Origin: a virus
Lineage: Duplodnaviria > Caudoviricetes
Reading direction: 5' to 3' (one strand)
Length of the DNA: 36,575 nt
Virus record (IMG/VR): IMGVR_UViG_3300038321_000208
Span: 1-36,575 of that record
Shown: in pieces, positions 973-19,800 of the stretch
Layout: every line of letters starts with the position of its first letter
Numbering within the stretch: the stretch's first letter is position 1
Notes under the pieces: generated by a model
Seen by the model: the letters and a program-made list of their open reading frames with translations, nothing else
Told to the model about the DNA's origin: nothing
The model's database searches: none
Program-made: the position numbers and the translations under genes

Positions 973-1407
973 TTATACCTTCCTCTGAACGGGAGGCGTC
1001 TGGCCGTGCGGCAAATTGAGGTAGTCGAGCAGGGCTGTTTCCAAAATACGTGAATAGTTCACTCCCTTTTGCTCGGCAGCTTCTTTGAGCCATGCCGGCA
1101 AGGTGATATTTGTCTTTACTCGCCTATTGTCCATTTCGTCCCGCACCATATCCGGGTACACGGTGACAGGCGAAACAAAATAACCGGATGCTGTATCAGG
1201 ATCGACCGTTGGCACTTTCGACGGCGCCGGAATCGGATCTCCATCCTGCTCCATACCATAAATGTGCAGACCCAGTGCGTCAGCGGCTTCCCGCTGAGCT
1301 TCTTCAAAGGTTTTTCCATAGCTGATGCACCCGGGGAGATCCGGAAAATAGACACCGTATCCGTCCTTGCTGGGCTCAAAAACAGCCAGATATGATAATT
1401 TACGCAT
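973..1407 (-). CDS. hicB: HicB family antitoxin
   Basis: YLAVFEP..GYGVYFPDLPGCISYGKTFEEA N-domain and C-terminal RHH-like KTNITLPAWL..A...GVNYS. The second ATG (1407) has the better RBS spacing. Confidence 0.92.
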   Translation of the reverse strand: MRKLSYLAVFEPSKDGYGVYFPDLPGCISYGKTFEEAQREAADALGLHIYGMEQDGDPIPAPSKVPTVDPDTASGYFVSPVTVYPDMVRDEMDNRRVKTNITLPAWLKEAAEQKGVNYSRILETALLDYLNLPHGQTPPVQRKV

Positions 1408-1440
1408 CCACATAACCTCCTTCTCGCCGCAGGCGGGGCT

Positions 1441-6332: not shown

Positions 6333-6404
6333 AAATAAAAAAAGCCCTCGTGTGAGGACCTTGCAATTATATAAAAAAGAGAGCGGCTATTCGTCGCTCT
6401 CTTT
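6333..6404 (-). terminator. Two tandem intrinsic terminators after the DGR RT
   Basis: AAAGAGAGCGAC-GAATA-GCCGCTCTCTTTTTT (6373-6404, overlapping the RT stop) and GGTCCTC-ACAC-GAGGGCTTTTTTT (~6337-6360). Confidence 0.7.
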
Positions 6405-7733
6405 GATAGCACTATTCCGTTGTAGGGAAAACCAGCCTTCCGTCCATTCCGTATCGGTGTATTCTCCGAAGATTTTTTTCCGAAGCGAATAGCTGTTGCA
6501 GTGTGAAAGCAGAGCGTCATAGGCGCTGAGAGTCTTCTTTGCCCGCTCCAATGAAATTTCACCATCTCGATAATCTTCCATCAAGGCCCGCAACCTTCTC
6601 CGCATTCTAAGGGCTGTGCTTTTCCGAAGTTTCAAATGGTTAGACCACAATCGGAAGCCGCAGAACTCGATTCCAAGGCTGATGGGACGAATGCAGACCT
6701 TGTCGTTCAGATCCAGCTGCAACCGGTCGTTGATGAAATTCTCCAGCATATCCTGCCAATCTTTCAGCTGCTGTTTGCTGTCCGAAAGGATTATAACATC
6801 ATCGTTATACCGGACATAATATTTGATACGGAGCTCTCTCTTTGCGTACTGATCGAGCGGATTAAGGTTCAGATTTGCAAGCATTTGAGATGATAGGGAT
6901 CCCACCGGGAGCCCCCGGTCCGGGATGCGCTCAGCCCTCGGAACTTCTTCCGGACGCTTTCCTGACGGCAGCCCGAAGTTCTGATTATTATCGCAAACAG
7001 TCGCTCTCATCCACGCCTGAACCTGCTTATCGCTGACCTTTCGATTAAACTCTCGAAGCACAACAGCATGTGAAATACGATAGAAATATTTCGATATGTC
7101 TAATTTTAGATAATACCATTTATGGCCTTCAGGAGCATCTTGGAATTCGATTTTTGATTTCCTCGATATGGCCTGCAGGTCATTGATTGATATTTTTTCG
7201 GAAGTTTGGTTTATGGAAATCTCACGGAAACCCTCGTGCGTCCAAACAGCCAGCTTCCCATTATTCCGAACGTTCTGCCAACCGGCTTCAGAAAGAACTC
7301 GTAAAACCGTACTGACCGGATAACAAGGTACATTGTTCTGCCAATCGACCAGCCGAAGCCAGTAATACAGTCGTTCTACCGCCGCAATCTGTCCTCTATC
7401 CTTAATGCTCGCAAAAGTATCTTTTATGTATCCACGGACAAATCGAGGATTCAGCACCCGGTAAAATGCCCACTGTATTACTCGGTCTTCAAATGGCTGC
7501 TTCATAATAAGGCGGCATTTGGGTTCATAAATATAAGATTCATGATACGGGCCTGGGTGGAAATCTCCAGCGAGTAGCCGCTTCTGAATGTGGCATAAAT
7601 TATCAATGAGATGGGCCGAAAACTTGAGAACTTCAGAACGATACCGTTTATCTCGCCGGGCTTTCAAATACGCCCGGTGGATGTTTTCAAACCTCGTGAT
7701 CTCAGGAAATACATTTTTTATCGTTTTTGGCAT
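6387..7733 (-). CDS. DGR reverse transcriptase with HicA-like insertion
   Basis: YEPK.RLI, F.DRVIQ, LKLDISKYF, GLPVGSLSSQ (DGR-type SQ), YVRYNDD and GIEFCGF motifs; no group II intron En domain. Confidence 0.95.
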   Translation of the reverse strand: MPKTIKNVFPEITRFENIHRAYLKARRDKRYRSEVLKFSAHLIDNLCHIQKRLLAGDFHPGPYHESYIYEPKCRLIMKQPFEDRVIQWAFYRVLNPRFVRGYIKDTFASIKDRGQIAAVERLYYWLRLVDWQNNVPCYPVSTVLRVLSEAGWQNVRNNGKLAVWTHEGFREISINQTSEKISINDLQAISRKSKIEFQDAPEGHKWYYLKLDISKYFYRISHAVVLREFNRKVSDKQVQAWMRATVCDNNQNFGLPSGKRPEEVPRAERIPDRGLPVGSLSSQMLANLNLNPLDQYAKRELRIKYYVRYNDDVIILSDSKQQLKDWQDMLENFINDRLQLDLNDKVCIRPISLGIEFCGFRLWSNHLKLRKSTALRMRRRLRALMEDYRDGEISLERAKKTLSAYDALLSHCNSYSLRKKIFGEYTDTEWTEGWFSLQRNSAIKESDE

Positions 7734-7887
7734 CTAAGACCTCAGGAAAACGCAAAAGGCGGCTTTCACTTTCGCTACTTGCAGCCTTCGCAAAATTCAT
7801 TTTTTTGCCAAACTGGCACGGAAACGAATTCCTTTATCCTCAGACTCCGTGCGGCGTCCATGGACGCGCGCCCCTGGTATGAGGTAG

Positions 7888-7999
7888 AGCGGCGCGGAAA
7901 CCCACGCTCCCCGAAGTATACGAGCGCGGATTATTGATGTTGAGGGCGAACACGCCAGCGGAAGCACCATTGGAATAATTACCACCGCGAAAAGGCAAA
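7888..7999 (-). ncRNA. DGR template repeat TR-a (RT-proximal)
   Basis: 112-bp homolog of VR (LPFRGGNYSNGASAGVFALNINNPRSYTSGSVGFRAA). The 3' half differs from VR at 5 nt, 4 of them template A. Confidence 0.92.
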
Positions 8000-8160
8000 A
8001 ATAAATTCGTTCCCATGTTTGCATCGGAGCGATTTTCGCAGATGTGCTACTCACGGCTCCTTAACGTTTCATTTTTTTACTGTAATCAGTACGGAAGCAG
8101 TTCCCTTTATCCTCGGGCTCTGTGCGCTGTCCATAAACATACGTCTCTGGCGCGAGGTAG

Positions 8161-8272
8161 AGCGGCGCGGAAACCCACATTGGTCCCGGAATTGGCACGA
8201 GGGTTATTCAGATTGAGGGCGAACACGCCAGCGGAAGCAGAATCATTCCAATCACCACCGCGAAAAGGCAAA
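8161..8272 (-). ncRNA. DGR template repeat TR-b (middle)
   Basis: 112-bp homolog of VR (LPFRGGDWNDSASAGVFALNLNNPRANSGTNVGFRAA). The 5' half differs from VR at only 2 nt, both template A. Confidence 0.92.
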
Positions 8273-8449
8273 ACATGAACTACTCCCAAATTCATCAAAT
8301 TAAGCTATGTTTTGCGAGGTTTGCATTTGCTACTACCAGCATCCATAGCTAATTCATTTTTTTGCCGAAATGTTAAGCATGGAAACAGGCTCCTTTAATC
8401 TCGTGTTCTGTTCATATATCCTTAGATATATGCCTCCGACAGGAGATAG

Positions 8450-8561
8450 AGCGGCGCGGAAACCCACATCGCTATTGGAGTACGAGCGGGTATAATTGAT
8501 ATAGAGGGCGAACACGCCAGCGGAAGCACCGTTACCGTATTCACCACCGCGAAAAGGCAAA
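8450..8561 (-). ncRNA. DGR template repeat TR-c (avd-proximal)
   Basis: 112-bp homolog (LPFRGGEYGNGASAGVFALYINYTRSYSNSDVGFRAA) with the same invariant blocks and flanking structure; no matching VR segment in the window. Confidence 0.82.
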
Positions 8562-8579
8562 ATACAGCCTGTTCCCGAA

Positions 8580-9098
8580 TTATTTTTTAGAAATTTTCTT
8601 TTGGCATGCGTAGCATAAAGATCTACCGAAGTGTGCAGTAGAATAGTCGTTGATTCTCTTTGTTATTACAGCACCGCAAACCGAGCATATATATTCTTTT
8701 CCTTCTGAATCGATTGTTCCGGACTTTTCACGCTCAGATTTTAACCACCCCCCTACCATCTGCCCGACCTCGACAATGCATTTTGAAATGTTTTCAAACT
8801 GGGGATCCTTCAGATAACCCAAATCGTTTGCCCACTGAATATCCATCTTGAACGCCCCGATCTCGGTATCAAGTTGACGAAGCGTGTCCTTTTTAGTGTA
8901 TTTTTTGTTCGCAACAAAGATCAGCTTTTTTATTGAATTGAATTCCTGCATCAGCGTTTGGACGATTACAAAGCGCTGCTCCTTATTCATTTTCCCGAGC
9001 ACCGGCCATAAGTACAGACCGAGGTCATACACCTTTTGCTGGATAAAAAGTTGCTCGTAGGCTTTTCCAAAGTGTCTATGATCGTTCTTTTCAGACAT
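8580..9098 (-). CDS. avd: DGR accessory variability determinant with C-terminal zinc ribbon
   Basis: L.I.QK.YD...Y....L, K.QRF, ANKK..KK.TL..LD.E and EVG.MVGGW.K four-helix-bundle motifs; located directly upstream of the TRs; CxxC-x20-CxxC tail. Confidence 0.9.
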   Translation of the reverse strand: MSEKNDHRHFGKAYEQLFIQQKVYDLGLYLWPVLGKMNKEQRFVIVQTLMQEFNSIKKLIFVANKKYTKKDTLRQLDTEIGAFKMDIQWANDLGYLKDPQFENISKCIVEVGQMVGGWLKSEREKSGTIDSEGKEYICSVCGAVITKRINDYSTAHFGRSLCYACQKKISKK

Positions 9099-9121
9099 AG
9101 AAGCTCCATATTATCAAAAAC

Positions 9122-9199
9122 TTTACCTATTCTGTAATAGTATAATGAGTTTCTGATATAAAAATCTCGCTTTTGGAATGAAATTACAATCTTCGTAAT
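9122..9199 (-). promoter_or_regulatory. avd-TR-RT operon promoter/operator
   Basis: -10 TATACT (9139-9144); ATTAC-N7-GTAAT (9183-9199); TTAC-N7-GTAA (9123-9137); 15-bp block identical to 918-932. Confidence 0.65.
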
Positions 9200-9216
9200 T
9201 TTTCGACAGGAAAATC

Positions 9217-9251
9217 AAAATGGGGATAGCCCTCAAACCTATCCCCATTTT
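9217..9251. terminator. Terminator-like hairpin separating tail genes from avd
   Basis: AAAATGGGGATAG-N9-CTATCCCCATTTT perfect 13-bp inverted repeat. Confidence 0.7.
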
Positions 9252-9264
9252 CCAATTTTTCGCG

Positions 9265-9308
9265 ACCCGCTTACGCGGGTGTAGATAAAAGTGGCGCTAC
9301 CGCGCCAC
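9265..9308 (-). promoter_or_regulatory. DGR target-recognition hairpins downstream of VR
   Basis: Minus strand: GTGGCGC-GGTA-GCGCCAC (9291-9308, GRNA loop) and ACCCGC-GTAA-GCGGGT (9265-9280). Confidence 0.75.
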
Positions 9309-9333
9309 AGCAGATATTCTTAAAACGCAAAAA

Positions 9334-10710
9334 TCACGATACGCAAAAAGCGGCGCGGAAACCCACGCTCCCCGAAGTCGACGAGCGCGGATTATCGATG
9401 CCGAGGGCGAACACGCCAGCGGAAGCAGAATCACGCCAATCACCACCGCGAAAAGGCAAACACTCAGTATTTGCACTTGTACCTTGGTACTGATAATCAT
9501 TCCCAAATTCGGCCAATCCGGAACTATCGCAATCCCCCATAACAGCGTGCTTCGCAAGTTTAGGATCCGTGTTGAGTTCCGTAACATCTTCGCTACTGCT
9601 TGACCAATTTGTCGGGAATTGTAAGCCCGTATCCGCTTCATCAACATATAAATAGCCGGTCCCTGCACTCCCTACTTTCAACTTCAAGCCGGCAGTCCAC
9701 TCCCAGACGTTACCATTGAGGTCATAGACACCATTGACCCTTCCCGTATGGCTCGTAAGATTCTGACCTGTCTTCCACCCTGATTTAATACCAGTGCCGG
9801 TCAATGCACGGCTGGAAACCGTAGGATCTGCCGTAAACGTGATTCCAGCGTCGTCAGTATCTTTCAAGCTGCTATTGTTTTCATAAGGTCCCCAACGGTT
9901 ACTTCCAAAACGGTCCGGGCCAAGGAGCATCGAATAAATGCCCAGTGCAACCCATTCTTCATCGCGTATAAGGCGTACTCCGATGTCTTTTCCATTCGTC
10001 GCATCGCTGGTCGCACAGGCGATCAAAGCATTGTCATATGTAATGGTCGTCCACGGGATTACACCGCTCTTTGAGACAGCGACCGTACTGCTACCGCCTG
10101 TGGAGGCCGTCGCATCGGCTTTGGATGCTTGAAATTTGAAAGCATAAAAGGGATGGAAAAGAACGACATTGTAATCCACACCCTCCGTCCCGGTTGGCCT
10201 ATGCCGAACAAAAAAGCCTTTTGGCCTACTGGCGTAACCGCAGGCAGATGGATTAATAACCTGAAATGCCCTAAAACCGGGCTGATAGACCCATGCGTTT
10301 GATCCCAGGTTAAAATCGTGAACTTCCAGACTGGAATCACAAAACTCTACTGCTGTTCCATCAGCATAGCCGCCAGAAGGCGCTTCCGGGTAAATGGTAA
10401 TCGGAACTTTGTTCCCTGCCGCCGTTCCACCGGTCGCGACAAGATGATAATTTCCGCCGATTTTTATCATGGCGGTTTTGTTGATATTTCCCGTCAGTGT
10501 GCCGCTTGCCGAATATACATTAACGCTCTGACTTCCCTCGGCGACAGTTTCGACCATAAGCCCCGTTGACGGATTGAGAGTATTTGATACATCTTTCCAG
10601 TGTTCCCGCTGCCATAAGGCGGAAAACACTTCCACGTCGTCTGAATTTAATGAAAAGTTTTCTGCCGGAGGTTCCGGTTGCACCTTTTTCTGCGCACCAA
10701 AGATAATCAT
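9334..10710 (-). CDS. DGR target: tail/receptor-binding protein with C-terminal FGE-type C-type lectin (Mtd-like) domain
   Basis: PW.TI...A..AC, LI...EW, GVYDLNGNVWEW and RGG.W......G........R.....GFR motifs; last gene of the tail module. Confidence 0.9.
   Translation of the reverse strand: MIIFGAQKKVQPEPPAENFSLNSDDVEVFSALWQREHWKDVSNTLNPSTGLMVETVAEGSQSVNVYSASGTLTGNINKTAMIKIGGNYHLVATGGTAAGNKVPITIYPEAPSGGYADGTAVEFCDSSLEVHDFNLGSNAWVYQPGFRAFQVINPSACGYASRPKGFFVRHRPTGTEGVDYNVVLFHPFYAFKFQASKADATASTGGSSTVAVSKSGVIPWTTITYDNALIACATSDATNGKDIGVRLIRDEEWVALGIYSMLLGPDRFGSNRWGPYENNSSLKDTDDAGITFTADPTVSSRALTGTGIKSGWKTGQNLTSHTGRVNGVYDLNGNVWEWTAGLKLKVGSAGTGYLYVDEADTGLQFPTNWSSSSEDVTELNTDPKLAKHAVMGDCDSSGLAEFGNDYQYQGTSANTECLPFRGGDWRDSASAGVFALGIDNPRSSTSGSVGFRAAFCVS
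9349..9460 (-). repeat. DGR variable repeat (VR)
   Basis: LPFRGGDWRDSASAGVFALGIDNPRSSTSGSVGFRAA at the extreme 3' end of the target; colinear with all three TRs. Confidence 0.95.
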
Positions 10711-16826: not shown

Positions 16827-19800
16827 TATGCGCTTTCCTCCAGCGGCGTGTTGTCGTGATCCTTTTCAATCCCCTCGGCAATCGCATCGCTGACAATGTT
16901 CGCTATTTCATCCTTGTGGTCTTTAATTTGCTGTACCACATCCCCATTTCCTCCTTCTACAACAATTTTGATGGACTGAATGATGACCTGGGGCTTACCG
17001 CCGCCAGCGCCTCCGGCCGCAGCGGGCGCCGGACGCGGATGCGGATTCGGAGTATCAGCCTCCGAAGGACTCGACGGGAATTGAATGACATCCCCACCGA
17101 AACCGCCGTTGGCTTTGGCGTCAATGCTCTGGCCGAGCGCGCTCCCGGTCTGCCGCCAGAGCTGCACACCACGATCATGCCTCCGGCTGCTCAGTGGGAT
17201 CACCATTTCAGGCGTTCCCTCTTCACCGAGAAGCGTCACTGTCGGCCGGGATATAAGGCCGCCGGCCGCCTTGTGCGCGCTTTGAGTGGATCCGCTTGTC
17301 GCAGCGCTGTAACCTGCGCTGAAATTGTGAGTAATCGTTCCCCATATGTCTTTGAAGAAGTTCGGCAGGGTATTAGTGAAGAATCCCTTGATGCTATTCC
17401 AAATGGTGGTTCCGAGCTCCGGGAGGGTATTTGTAAAAAACGTATTTACCGAACCCCATAGGCTGGAGAAGAATCCGGGGATCGTTTTCGTAAAGAACGG
17501 AGTGATGTTGTTATTCCAGACGTTCGACGCCCACGTCGGAAGTGTGGAGGTGAAGAACGTCGAAATCCCATTCCAGAGGGTTCCGAAGAAATTCGGGATG
17601 CTCTGCGTAAAGAACGGGACGATGTGGCCATTCCAGACGTTTGACACCCACGTCGGAAGTGTGGAGGTGAAGAACGTCGAAATCCCATTCCAGAGGGTTC
17701 CGAAGAAATTCGGGATGCTCTGCGTAAAGAACGGGACGATGTGGCCATTCCAGACGTTTGACACCCACGTTGGAAGCGTGGAGGTAAAGAACGTCGAGAT
17801 CCCGTTCCAGAGGGTTCCGAAGAAATTCGGGATGCTTTGCGTAAAGAACGGGACGATGTGGCCGTTCCAAACATTTGACGCCCACGTCGGAAGTGTGGAG
17901 GTAAAGAACGTCGAGATCCCATTCCACAGGTTCCCAAAAAAGTTTGGTAGATCTTGGGTGAAGAATATTTGCGCTTTTCCGGTTGCATAACCTATGGCAA
18001 AGGGCAACTGCTGTGTAAAAAAGTTTGGAAGTGTACTCGTGAAGAACGTACCGATGCCGGTCCCCACCGTTTGCACGGCCTGTGGGATCATCTGCGTAAA
18101 GAACGTGCCGAGGCCGGCTCCCATCGTCTGAAAGGCACCGGGAATCTTATTTGTGAAGACATCCCCGATGGCCTTCCCCGCGCCGGAAACCGTTGGAGCG
18201 ACTTTTGTGCTTACAAAAGTCCCGATCCCGGTGCCAATCTTTCCTGCGGTGTCCGGAACCGTCTTTGCGAAAAAGCCTCCGACCGCTTTGCCGGCGTTGT
18301 TCAGGGCGCCGCCCTTATTCGTGGATTTTGCGAGTGCCGAGCCGGCTTTGTTGCCGCCAATCAGGGCACTTGCACCGCCTACACCGGCGCCGACCAGCGC
18401 GCCCACAGCTGTACCAACCCCAGGCACGACAGATCCTATCAACGCGCCGGCGCCGATCATTCCAAGCTTTGTCCCACCCTGGAACTGCTTTTCTCGCTTG
18501 GCTTGCCCGGCCGGCATCTTACTCGCATTATAGAGATCCTTGCCGGCGCTGGCCACGCCGACTCCGGCTGTAATCGCGCCGGCAGTTGCGGCGGAACCGG
18601 CCAACGCCGCACCGCCTGCGGTCGCGGCACCGGAACCGAGCTTTGTCCCAATTTTTCCAAACAGGCTTCCTGCCTTAGACGCGCCGAATTTCTGCAACAG
18701 ACTGCCGCCTGCGGCCGCCTCGCCGGATTCCAGCAGCGGTTTTTCTCCGGAAGGAAGCGCCGGTGCCCCGCTGGACCGTGAGCCGGTCGCCGGGACGCTG
18801 GGCACGCCGACAAAAGATTTTCCGACCAGGTTCACCACGTTCGCCAGCACGTTCATAGTGCCGATGGTAGAAGCGTTCGGCATGTTCATCCCGGAACCGC
18901 CGCTTCCGCTGTTGCTTTTACCCTTTCCGAAAATGCCGCTCAGGGCACCCGTGATCGTTTTGCTCGTGGTGATTGCATTGGAAAGGCCCTTCACGAAACT
19001 TGTGCCGAATTTAAGCCCGATCGCGACCATAAGCACCTTGTGCGTTTCGGCGAAATTCTGAAACGCGCTTACGATCTTTTTGCCGTCGAAGCCCTTCAAA
19101 AACCCAGAGCAGAAGCTTGAGCCAAGATTGGCTCCCTGCTGCCGCGCATCCCCATCGCTGAATCCGAGGAGCGCCGTGATGCCGCCTGTTATCCCGGAAC
19201 CGAGGCTTTCCCCGATCCCGGACAATTTCTTTGCGATTTTTCTTTTTCCTGTGCTGTCCCACCAATCGGCAAATGGTTTTGAAATAACCTCGTCCCACGC
19301 AATTTTGATTTTCCCGCCGATGGATGCGTTTTTGAAGCGGTCCGAGTTGAAAACCTTGGTCATGCGGTCCTCGATGTGGCCCAGCACATCAAATACTTTC
19401 GTGCTTAACGCAGCGCCGAAATCTTCGAGGCTCGACCCGGCCTTGTTCAGCGTCGGACCAATATCCGCGAGGAATTTATTGAACCGCGAAAGGCCCTTAA
19501 TCGCACCGGTCTGGAGGCCGTGCCCCCATTTTGAGATAATTCCGACATCGAATGTATCTTTGATCTGCGATAGAAGCCCTGATGCAGTACGGTTAGCCGT
19601 CTTGTCCATCATGCCATTGAATTCACCCATGCCTTTTACGATGGCGTCAATGGCTTTATCCGCTGGAATTAATCCCTTTTCGGCCATCTTCTGGATCTCC
19701 GGAACCGTCTTCCCCATCGACTGGGCAACATATTTCCAGGCGTTGATGCTATTGTCGGTCAGCTGCAGCATCTCGGAAGAGGACAGTTTGCCTTTCATCC

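Follow-up and report, generated by a model that had tools for sequence, protein, structure and literature searches.

Organization of the three-template locus

The 36,575-bp contig analysed here (hereafter the window) has genes for terminase, major head, tail sheath, tape measure, baseplate and amidase, by which we assign it to a contractile-tailed phage or prophage. For the target gene product, the named homologues are proteins of Faecalispora (70%) and Clostridium merdae (62%), which suggests that the host belongs to the Clostridia. On its minus strand the window carries a DGR in the order target gene, avd, three repeats and reverse transcriptase (RT) gene (Table 1). The contig holds a single VR, and the three other copies, lying between avd and the RT gene, carry spacers; a multi-target DGR was thereby ruled out. 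Sequencing-run contigs cover the array without differences, in overlapping pieces none of which spans it whole. A scan for promoters and terminators stayed at chance level (promoters, 3 vs 2.6; terminators, 3 vs 1.9). Elsewhere in the window, the tape-measure gene contains a coding repeat of 117 bp in four copies (positions 17393-17977), an ordinary feature, and a HicB-like antitoxin gene is present (973-1413, minus strand).

Table 1. Features of the DGR locus, in window coordinates.
Feature	Position	Strand	Context
Target gene, 458 aa, FGE-type C-type-lectin (CLec) fold	9334-10710	-	End of tail/baseplate module
VR, 112 bp, mosaic of TRb and TRc	9349-9460	-	3' end of ORF 9334-10710
VR loop 1, TRb except at 2 adenine positions	9428-9441	-	
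25-nt adenine-free block common to VR and all templates; TRb/TRc junction in it or in the two adjoining bases	9403-9427	-	
VR loop 2, TRc except at 4 adenine positions and one T-to-G	9367-9402	-	
Two GC-rich hairpins 3' of VR (9291-9308, 9265-9280)	9265-9308	-	
avd with C-terminal CxxC...CxxC extension	8580-9098	-	PF22296
Template unit a: leader 8566-8576, TRa 8450-8561, RT-14 spacer 8305-8449, partner strand 8381-8391	8305-8576	-	
Template unit b: leader 8277-8287, TRb 8161-8272, RT-14 spacer 8021-8162, partner strand 8093-8103	8021-8287	-	
Template unit c: leader 8004-8014, TRc 7888-7999, RT-14 spacer 7750-7889, partner strand 7820-7830	7750-8014	-	
DGR reverse transcriptase, 448 aa, YNDD, ~57-aa insertion (within 7128-7346)	6387-7733	-	PF00078

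The AlphaFold model of the target (mean pLDDT 85.7) has TaqVP (5vf4) as its best Foldseek match (E 1e-15) and also matches Mtd and TvpA, and a PHROG search identified a tail protein (E 1e-5). As in other DGRs, whose targets have a CLec or Ig fold, the VR lies at the C-terminus of a CLec-fold target, spanning about its last 38 codons, and is followed by downstream hairpins. The latter, two GC-rich structures found after the VR and absent after the templates, form a candidate target-recognition hairpin by analogy with Guo 2011. Given its fold, its location behind the tail genes and the precedent of BPP-1, the target is predicted to be a receptor-binding protein with a role in host recognition. 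Targets 64-70% identical to that of the window (L281, L284 and L285; L numbers designate related loci) include some on single-template cassettes (contigs of L147 and L149), and an RT 81% identical to that of the window, in L001, accompanies a different target protein. The cassette thus seems to move between tail genes.

Both a DGR-type RT beside the repeats and an accessory Avd are present. The RT matches PF00078 (E 4e-15) and phrog_1423 (E 4e-111) and groups in a tree with RTs that have TR/VR pairs; Avd matches PF22296 (E 2e-16) and phrog_3206 (E 1e-24). Among deposited phages the nearest RT is that of Clostridium phage Saumur (44%), and none of the deposited phage RTs reaches 60% identity. 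The catalytic motif of the window RT is YNDD, found in 2 of 199 distinct RTs (the window and L204, which are 94% identical) with both aspartates kept, vs YMDD in 169 of 199 and YQDD in L141, L142 and L247. With this motif, present-day activity of the RT is putative, and YNDD is a point against the retrohoming model proposed below. An insertion of ~57 aa, shared by four of the 159 RTs that were aligned (window, L001, L206 and L211), gave a weak HicA-family match (E 0.007, under the Pfam cut-off) that is absent in L001, and an Atlas search with it returned no usable match; it could be an added RNA-binding module.

Structure and conservation of the template units

The three 112-bp repeats lie between avd and the RT gene at the positions given by an earlier, sequence-only reading of this DNA, spaced by 289 and 273 bp, and share the three invariant blocks devoid of template-strand adenine that it described, which measure 19, 25 and 18 nt (columns 1-19, 34-58 and 95-112). 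The strong divergence that it reported among the templates (TRa, TRb and TRc), also at non-adenine positions, is likewise borne out: 23-27 of 112 positions differ in pairwise comparisons, 17-22 of them at non-adenine bases of the first template, and the peptides GNYSNG, GDWNDS and GEYGNG had been read correctly. Each repeat belongs to a unit of about 270-290 bp that also comprises a leader and a structured 3' spacer. Matches to Rfam RT-14 follow all three templates, scoring 65.3 bits (a), 48.6 bits (b, barely over the curated cut-off of 48.1 bits) and 57.9 bits (c). In the passages of Weinberg 2017 (PMC5737381) that treat RT motifs, these are RNAs near RT genes, for some of which a DGR role is speculated, and RT-14 goes without mention in the main-text passages.

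Within each unit, the 11-nt leader is predicted to pair best with its own spacer (-20.5, -18.3 and -15.7 kcal/mol, vs -4.4 to -9.2 kcal/mol with the spacers of neighbouring units). Across 24 arrays the own partner was strictly the best in 50 of 69 units, the misses including misassembled or duplicated units and motif-finder failures, and an alignment of 30 spacers revealed two-sided change in 8 of 18 predicted pairs. For BPP-1, passages of Handa et al. (bioRxiv 10.1101/2023.10.23.563531) report that cDNA synthesis needs an 11-bp upstream:spacer duplex, then a stem-loop and adenines (cPRT Stop), and that a cPRT Stop is predicted in 207 of 278 DGRs. The leader-spacer helix is already known; what is new here is the private version of it kept by each unit.

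Spacers b and c share 77% and 83-89% identity with their positional counterparts in L001 and L206, spacer a has no clear counterpart in these two loci (66-68%), and the window's own spacers are 62-66% identical among themselves. The loops, compared with those of their L001 and L206 counterparts, mostly reach 52-67%, the exception being template c against L206 unit 4 (78%). Because spacers b and c are conserved across phages while the loops diverge, the three-slot scaffold seems to be older than its loop contents.

Throughout the multi-template arrays, the templates vary within the loops only (0.36-0.38, against 0.028 elsewhere), and 78 of 81 keep the reading frame and lack stops. Templates in arrays vary in length from 111 to 117 nt and hold a mean of 16.9 adenines (n=81), vs 21.9 for single templates (n=76). 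The idea that templates diverged from one another solely at adenines was rejected, as 729 of 1,396 template-template differences are without any A; in the same comparison, loop columns are equally variable whether A-rich or not. Adenine-depleted templates were also observed at L196:4547-4663 and at L227:3205-3317; the latter, 113 nt long and almost the same as its VR, carries a stop and a frameshift.

The VR as a mosaic of two templates

Compared singly with the VR, TRa, TRb and TRc show 16, 16 and 7 mismatches at non-adenine template bases, such that no single template explains it; the assertion that this architecture is not the canonical BPP-1-type one is therefore upheld. By comparison, among single-template pairs (n=109), 71, 25 and 8 have 0, 1 and 2 non-adenine mismatches, respectively, and five have 3-8. 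Joining TRb loop 1 to TRc loop 2 leaves six adenine changes and one other (binomial P 4e-5 for 6 of 7 changes at A, given the mosaic), the exception being a T-to-G beside a changed adenine in loop 2. The junction falls in the 25-nt adenine-free block or its two adjoining bases, adenine-specific changes occur in both halves of the VR, and the VR retains its own flanks. The pattern that characterizes DGRs, in which TR/VR differences lie nearly all at template adenines, is thus obtained in the window only when two templates are allowed. In the possible source run, no single contig joins VR loop 1 to loop 2 (gap 9379-9403).

These observations recast an earlier proposal that a template library feeds one target and switches it between three scaffolds. 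The library part stands, in that several templates appear to be used and the VR has the non-adenine markers of two of them; the switched unit, however, is the loop, giving up to 3 x 3 pairings rather than three scaffolds. A larger theoretical library was rejected as the array's gain, the mixed space being about 2e10 vs about 7e13 for one 23-A template. Instead, we take the gain to be change at positions beyond the reach of adenine mutagenesis.

Other loop combinations were found on what is otherwise the same cassette and among close protein variants of the target. From run X4, which belongs to a different study than the possible source run, one contig matches positions 8216-9366 with no substitutions and one 3-nt gap, and continues past the VR 3' block into TRb loop 2; this evidence consists of 12 letters at the contig's end, six of them diagnostic against TRc. 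The 90% cluster of the target has eight members, known from their proteins and not their arrays, in which loops assigned at the protein level combine as b+c (P0001, P0127), b+b (P0122), c+c (P0125) and c then a (P0124); two others (P0123, P0126) run into the spacer of TRa and are likely misassembled or deleted, and P0121 is truncated. Direct use of TRa rests on P0124, one protein variant known without its own array. The b+c peptide of the window recurs in P0127, which is encoded on a second contig of 21 kb. Similarly, in a 15-member cluster tied to the templates of L206, the four two-template loop pairings have 3, 7, 3 and 2 members, with about 9 of 15 mixed (both counted by eye). Close relatives lacking the array and parts of avd and RT, in which a deletion joins avd to RT, were identified at L002:3972-3997 and L205:4901-4926, and the VR left in each is TRb-like in both loops.

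Close repeats can misassemble, and L206, L207, L232, P0123 and P0126 show signs of this, such that the mosaic might be an assembly artefact, or two of the copies decayed duplicates, as the sequence-only reading had envisaged as its own refutation. At the sequence level, no such decay was found. Both halves of the VR have adenine changes of their own and the VR its own flanks, the b+c peptide recurs on the second contig, template variation is loop-confined with reading frames kept, and spacers b and c are conserved in other phages beyond what is seen in most loops. We therefore regard decay or artefact as very improbable.

Multi-template arrays among related DGRs

After dereplication, searches of viral, genome and metagenome contigs left 29 loci that combine a VR with 2-5 templates. 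As clade motifs served as seeds and one of the scans extended over 18 of 64 parts, the counts given here are not natural frequencies. An exact DNA pattern search of viral contigs gave no match. A tree built from 159 RTs contains a clade (39 tips, FastTree support 0.97) with at least 26 multi-template tips, a number that under-calls some truncated loci, vs 4 of 120 tips outside it. A survey of homologous RT loci for template number, as had been suggested, thus found arrays of 2-5 templates concentrated in, and in this tree marking, one RT clade of Clostridia phages. Those carriers that are named belong to the Oscillospiraceae and Lachnospiraceae, and include the genome of an Enterocloster aldenensis isolate with five templates. 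A zinc-ribbon-like CxxC...CxxC tail of Avd is found in 31 of 32 avd-bearing tips inside the multi-template clade and 0 of 95 outside; in the window, this C-terminal extension occupies the end of avd (8580-8700, minus strand).

One-switch mosaics account for nine of the 29 VRs (window, L001, L024, L142, L203, L206, L229, L240 and L243). In these, 5-10 non-adenine mismatches with one template fall to 0-2 with two, and the switch interval includes the central block in 8 of 9. As a control, template sets from other loci gave two or fewer non-adenine mismatches in 0 of 448 trials (minimum 7). A further 14 VRs fit one template with 0-1 non-adenine mismatch, among them L207 and L233, which are identical to a template and may reflect assembly collapse, and the truncated L237. 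Of the others, one has three mismatches, two (L050 and L063) are unexplained by their own arrays, and three (L188, L235 and L256) are uninformative owing to N or truncation. Within one gut-phage group, six loci with a near-identical five-template array have VRs derived from TR1, TR2, TR2, TR3, TR3>TR5 and TR4>TR2. Taken together, these results argue that several templates are almost certainly used on one target in this lineage.

The three cassettes, which are silent, in frame and flanked by common blocks, could, together with the few VRs identical to a template (L207, L233), also be read as DNA-level gene conversion from silent cassettes, as in antigenic variation, with the RT a bystander. The nine mosaics, pooled, nevertheless contain 49 changes at template adenines and three elsewhere (49 of 52 at A), which is the signature of an RT and not the letter-for-letter copying that gene conversion would produce; the two identical cases may be assembly collapse, and all cassettes of the window keep an RNA structure for which gene conversion has no need. 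This explanation is accordingly highly unlikely.

A model for the origin of mosaic VRs

We propose that the mosaics arise by successive, partial mutagenic retrohoming from different units, a reading to which we assign a probability of roughly 0.7. Each unit would fold into its own RT-Avd substrate and prime cDNA across its own template, the private 11-bp helix preventing neighbouring units from mispairing. The VR 3' end would be the entry point of the cDNA, whose 5' side would resolve wherever homology allows. As the loops differ between templates, only the 25-nt central and 19-nt 5' blocks offer good homology, such that one event would replace either loop 2 alone or both loops. For BPP-1, passages of Guo 2011 (PMC3240598) describe a fixed 3' boundary and 5' integration through at least 8 bp of homology, better with at least 19 bp, against which the shared blocks of 25 and 19 nt may be set. 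Over repeated events, as many as nine loop pairings would arise, all of them varied further at adenines. Two loci, L050 and L063, speak against a strict 3'-first order, since in both a resident template fits loop 1 and none matches loop 2.

Alternatively, all templates could be used and the mosaics formed within one event, the RT switching templates at the central block on a multi-unit RNA. The clustering of switch points in the shared block would agree with this, as would the array at L142:4400-5110, where four leader-template units, 140-149 nt apart, share one common distal RT-14 spacer with which all four leaders can pair, and where a template without a spacer supplied the mutated VR loop 1. 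The same template argues against treating each unit as self-contained in general. In the window, conversely, the private helix of each unit favours separate folding; furthermore, 14 of 29 VRs derive from a single template, and partial replacement requires no new activity of the RT. We consider template switching by the RT unlikely.

Another rival holds that whole VRs are retrohomed from one template and that later DNA recombination generates the mosaics, either between sibling VRs or between templates, in which case a chimeric template was used and then lost. Templates do exchange loops, as 11 of 80 distinct loop-1 sequences have two or more loop-2 partners and 5 of 87 do so in the reverse comparison, and VR loop 2 of L050 matches a template of another locus, differing at six A positions only. 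Deletions between repeats also exist: at L003:2642-4160 (the same contig in L035 and L220) the target is fused to a template unit, its VR continuing into the template spacer, and avd is absent, as if the DNA had been deleted between the VR and a template. Nine clean mosaics of still-present templates among 29 loci, together with the mixed members of the L206-linked cluster, are nevertheless much to attribute to a secondary process, and several active templates are required even so. Later recombination is therefore an improbable source of the mosaics, and successive partial retrohoming is the reading that we prefer.

Given that variation is confined to the loops, that nearly all templates are in frame and stop-free and that they are poor in adenine, the template set fits a library of workable loop scaffolds selected through use. 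Such a library would be expected to give non-adenine positions and loop-length variants (111-117 nt) and not a larger random space. More tentatively, the array may be a heritable, evolving library of pre-selected loops that the RT mixes and mutates, with templates rewritten and exchanged between phages, a possibility that we hold to be rather doubtful. Rewriting would proceed by retrohoming into templates or by capture of successful VR alleles. Hints in this direction are the adenine-poor, in-frame templates, the persistence of scaffolds whose loops turn over, templates that resemble adenine-mutated versions of others (L196 unit 2, at 7 A; L227 unit 2, close to its VR; L199 vs L003), and the likeness of VR loop 2 in L050 to a template from another locus. 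Back-capture of VR alleles finds weak support, as 4 of 47 close template pairs differ one-directionally at A only, and two of these four involve the fused VR of L003.

Comparison with known systems

Judged by its sequence, the multi-template DGR of the window looks intact; it belongs to the DGR family but departs from the single-template plan. In the usual description of a DGR, the sequence space within reach is set by the adenines of one invariant template. Loop swapping would also allow the target of the window to change at non-adenine positions and in loop length, by which phage receptor evolution would gain a combinatorial layer. The natural non-adenine markers make it possible to test by sequencing how and where cDNA integrates. 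For engineered DGR mutagenesis, giving each of several multiplexed templates a private leader-spacer helix is a design rule that the window suggests; multiple engineered TRs are stated as a future aim in a passage of bioRxiv 10.64898/2026.07.21.739853. Pipelines that demand adenine-only TR/VR differences, filters of a type found in passages of Yan 2019 (PMC6642488), PMC11792537 and DiGReF (PMC3521204), would tend to overlook or misread such elements.

A description of tandem templates feeding one mosaic VR was not found in those parts of the full-text literature outside subscription journals that were covered; the supplements of Wu 2018, Yan 2019 and Roux 2021 may list such cases. It is absent from the relevant passages of Benler 2021, Roux 2021, PMC10907252, PMC11792537 and PMC12629997, as well as from those of DiGReF (PMC3521204), PMC12875486 and bioRxiv 10.1101/2024.11.15.621889. 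DGRs published as multi-target or multi-TR (Wu 2018, PMC5758913; Yan 2019, PMC6642488; Nimkulrat 2016, PMC4891356) likewise depart from the one-TR/one-VR plan, through several targets per template, more than one TR, or between-strain TR variants. In contrast to the window, the extra element in the passages concerned is a target, a set of TRs with their own VRs, or a TR variant across strains. For example, a passage of Yan 2019 gives one TR in 216 of 271 multi-VR DGRs, such that some have more, and describes these as TRs with corresponding VRs.

The BPP-1 DGR (mtd-avd-TR-Sp-brt) resembles that of the window in the order target-avd-template-RT, the CLec-fold target with a C-terminal VR, the adenine-specific changes, the hairpin after the VR, and the 11-bp upstream:spacer duplex, after which come a stem-loop and adenines. 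It differs in having one template and one spacer, where the window has three full units, whose loops differ and each of which has a private helix, and where the VR derives from two templates. Single-template DGRs of Bacillota phages (such as L054 and L151) share the CLec VR motif, the RT-14 spacer and leader-spacer pairing; unlike the window, they have one A-rich template (mean 21.9 A) that explains the VR in 104 of 109 pairs (0-2 non-adenine mismatches), and an Avd without the zinc-ribbon-like tail.

In silent-cassette antigenic variation and V(D)J-like assembly, a small library of silent segments is recombined into one expressed site via shared flanks. If the tentative view of the array as an evolving library were true, the system would be an analogue of V(D)J plus hypermutation, with memory. 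What sets the window apart from these systems is that transfer bears the adenine-mutagenesis signature of an RT, and mixing and hypermutation would therefore be one process.
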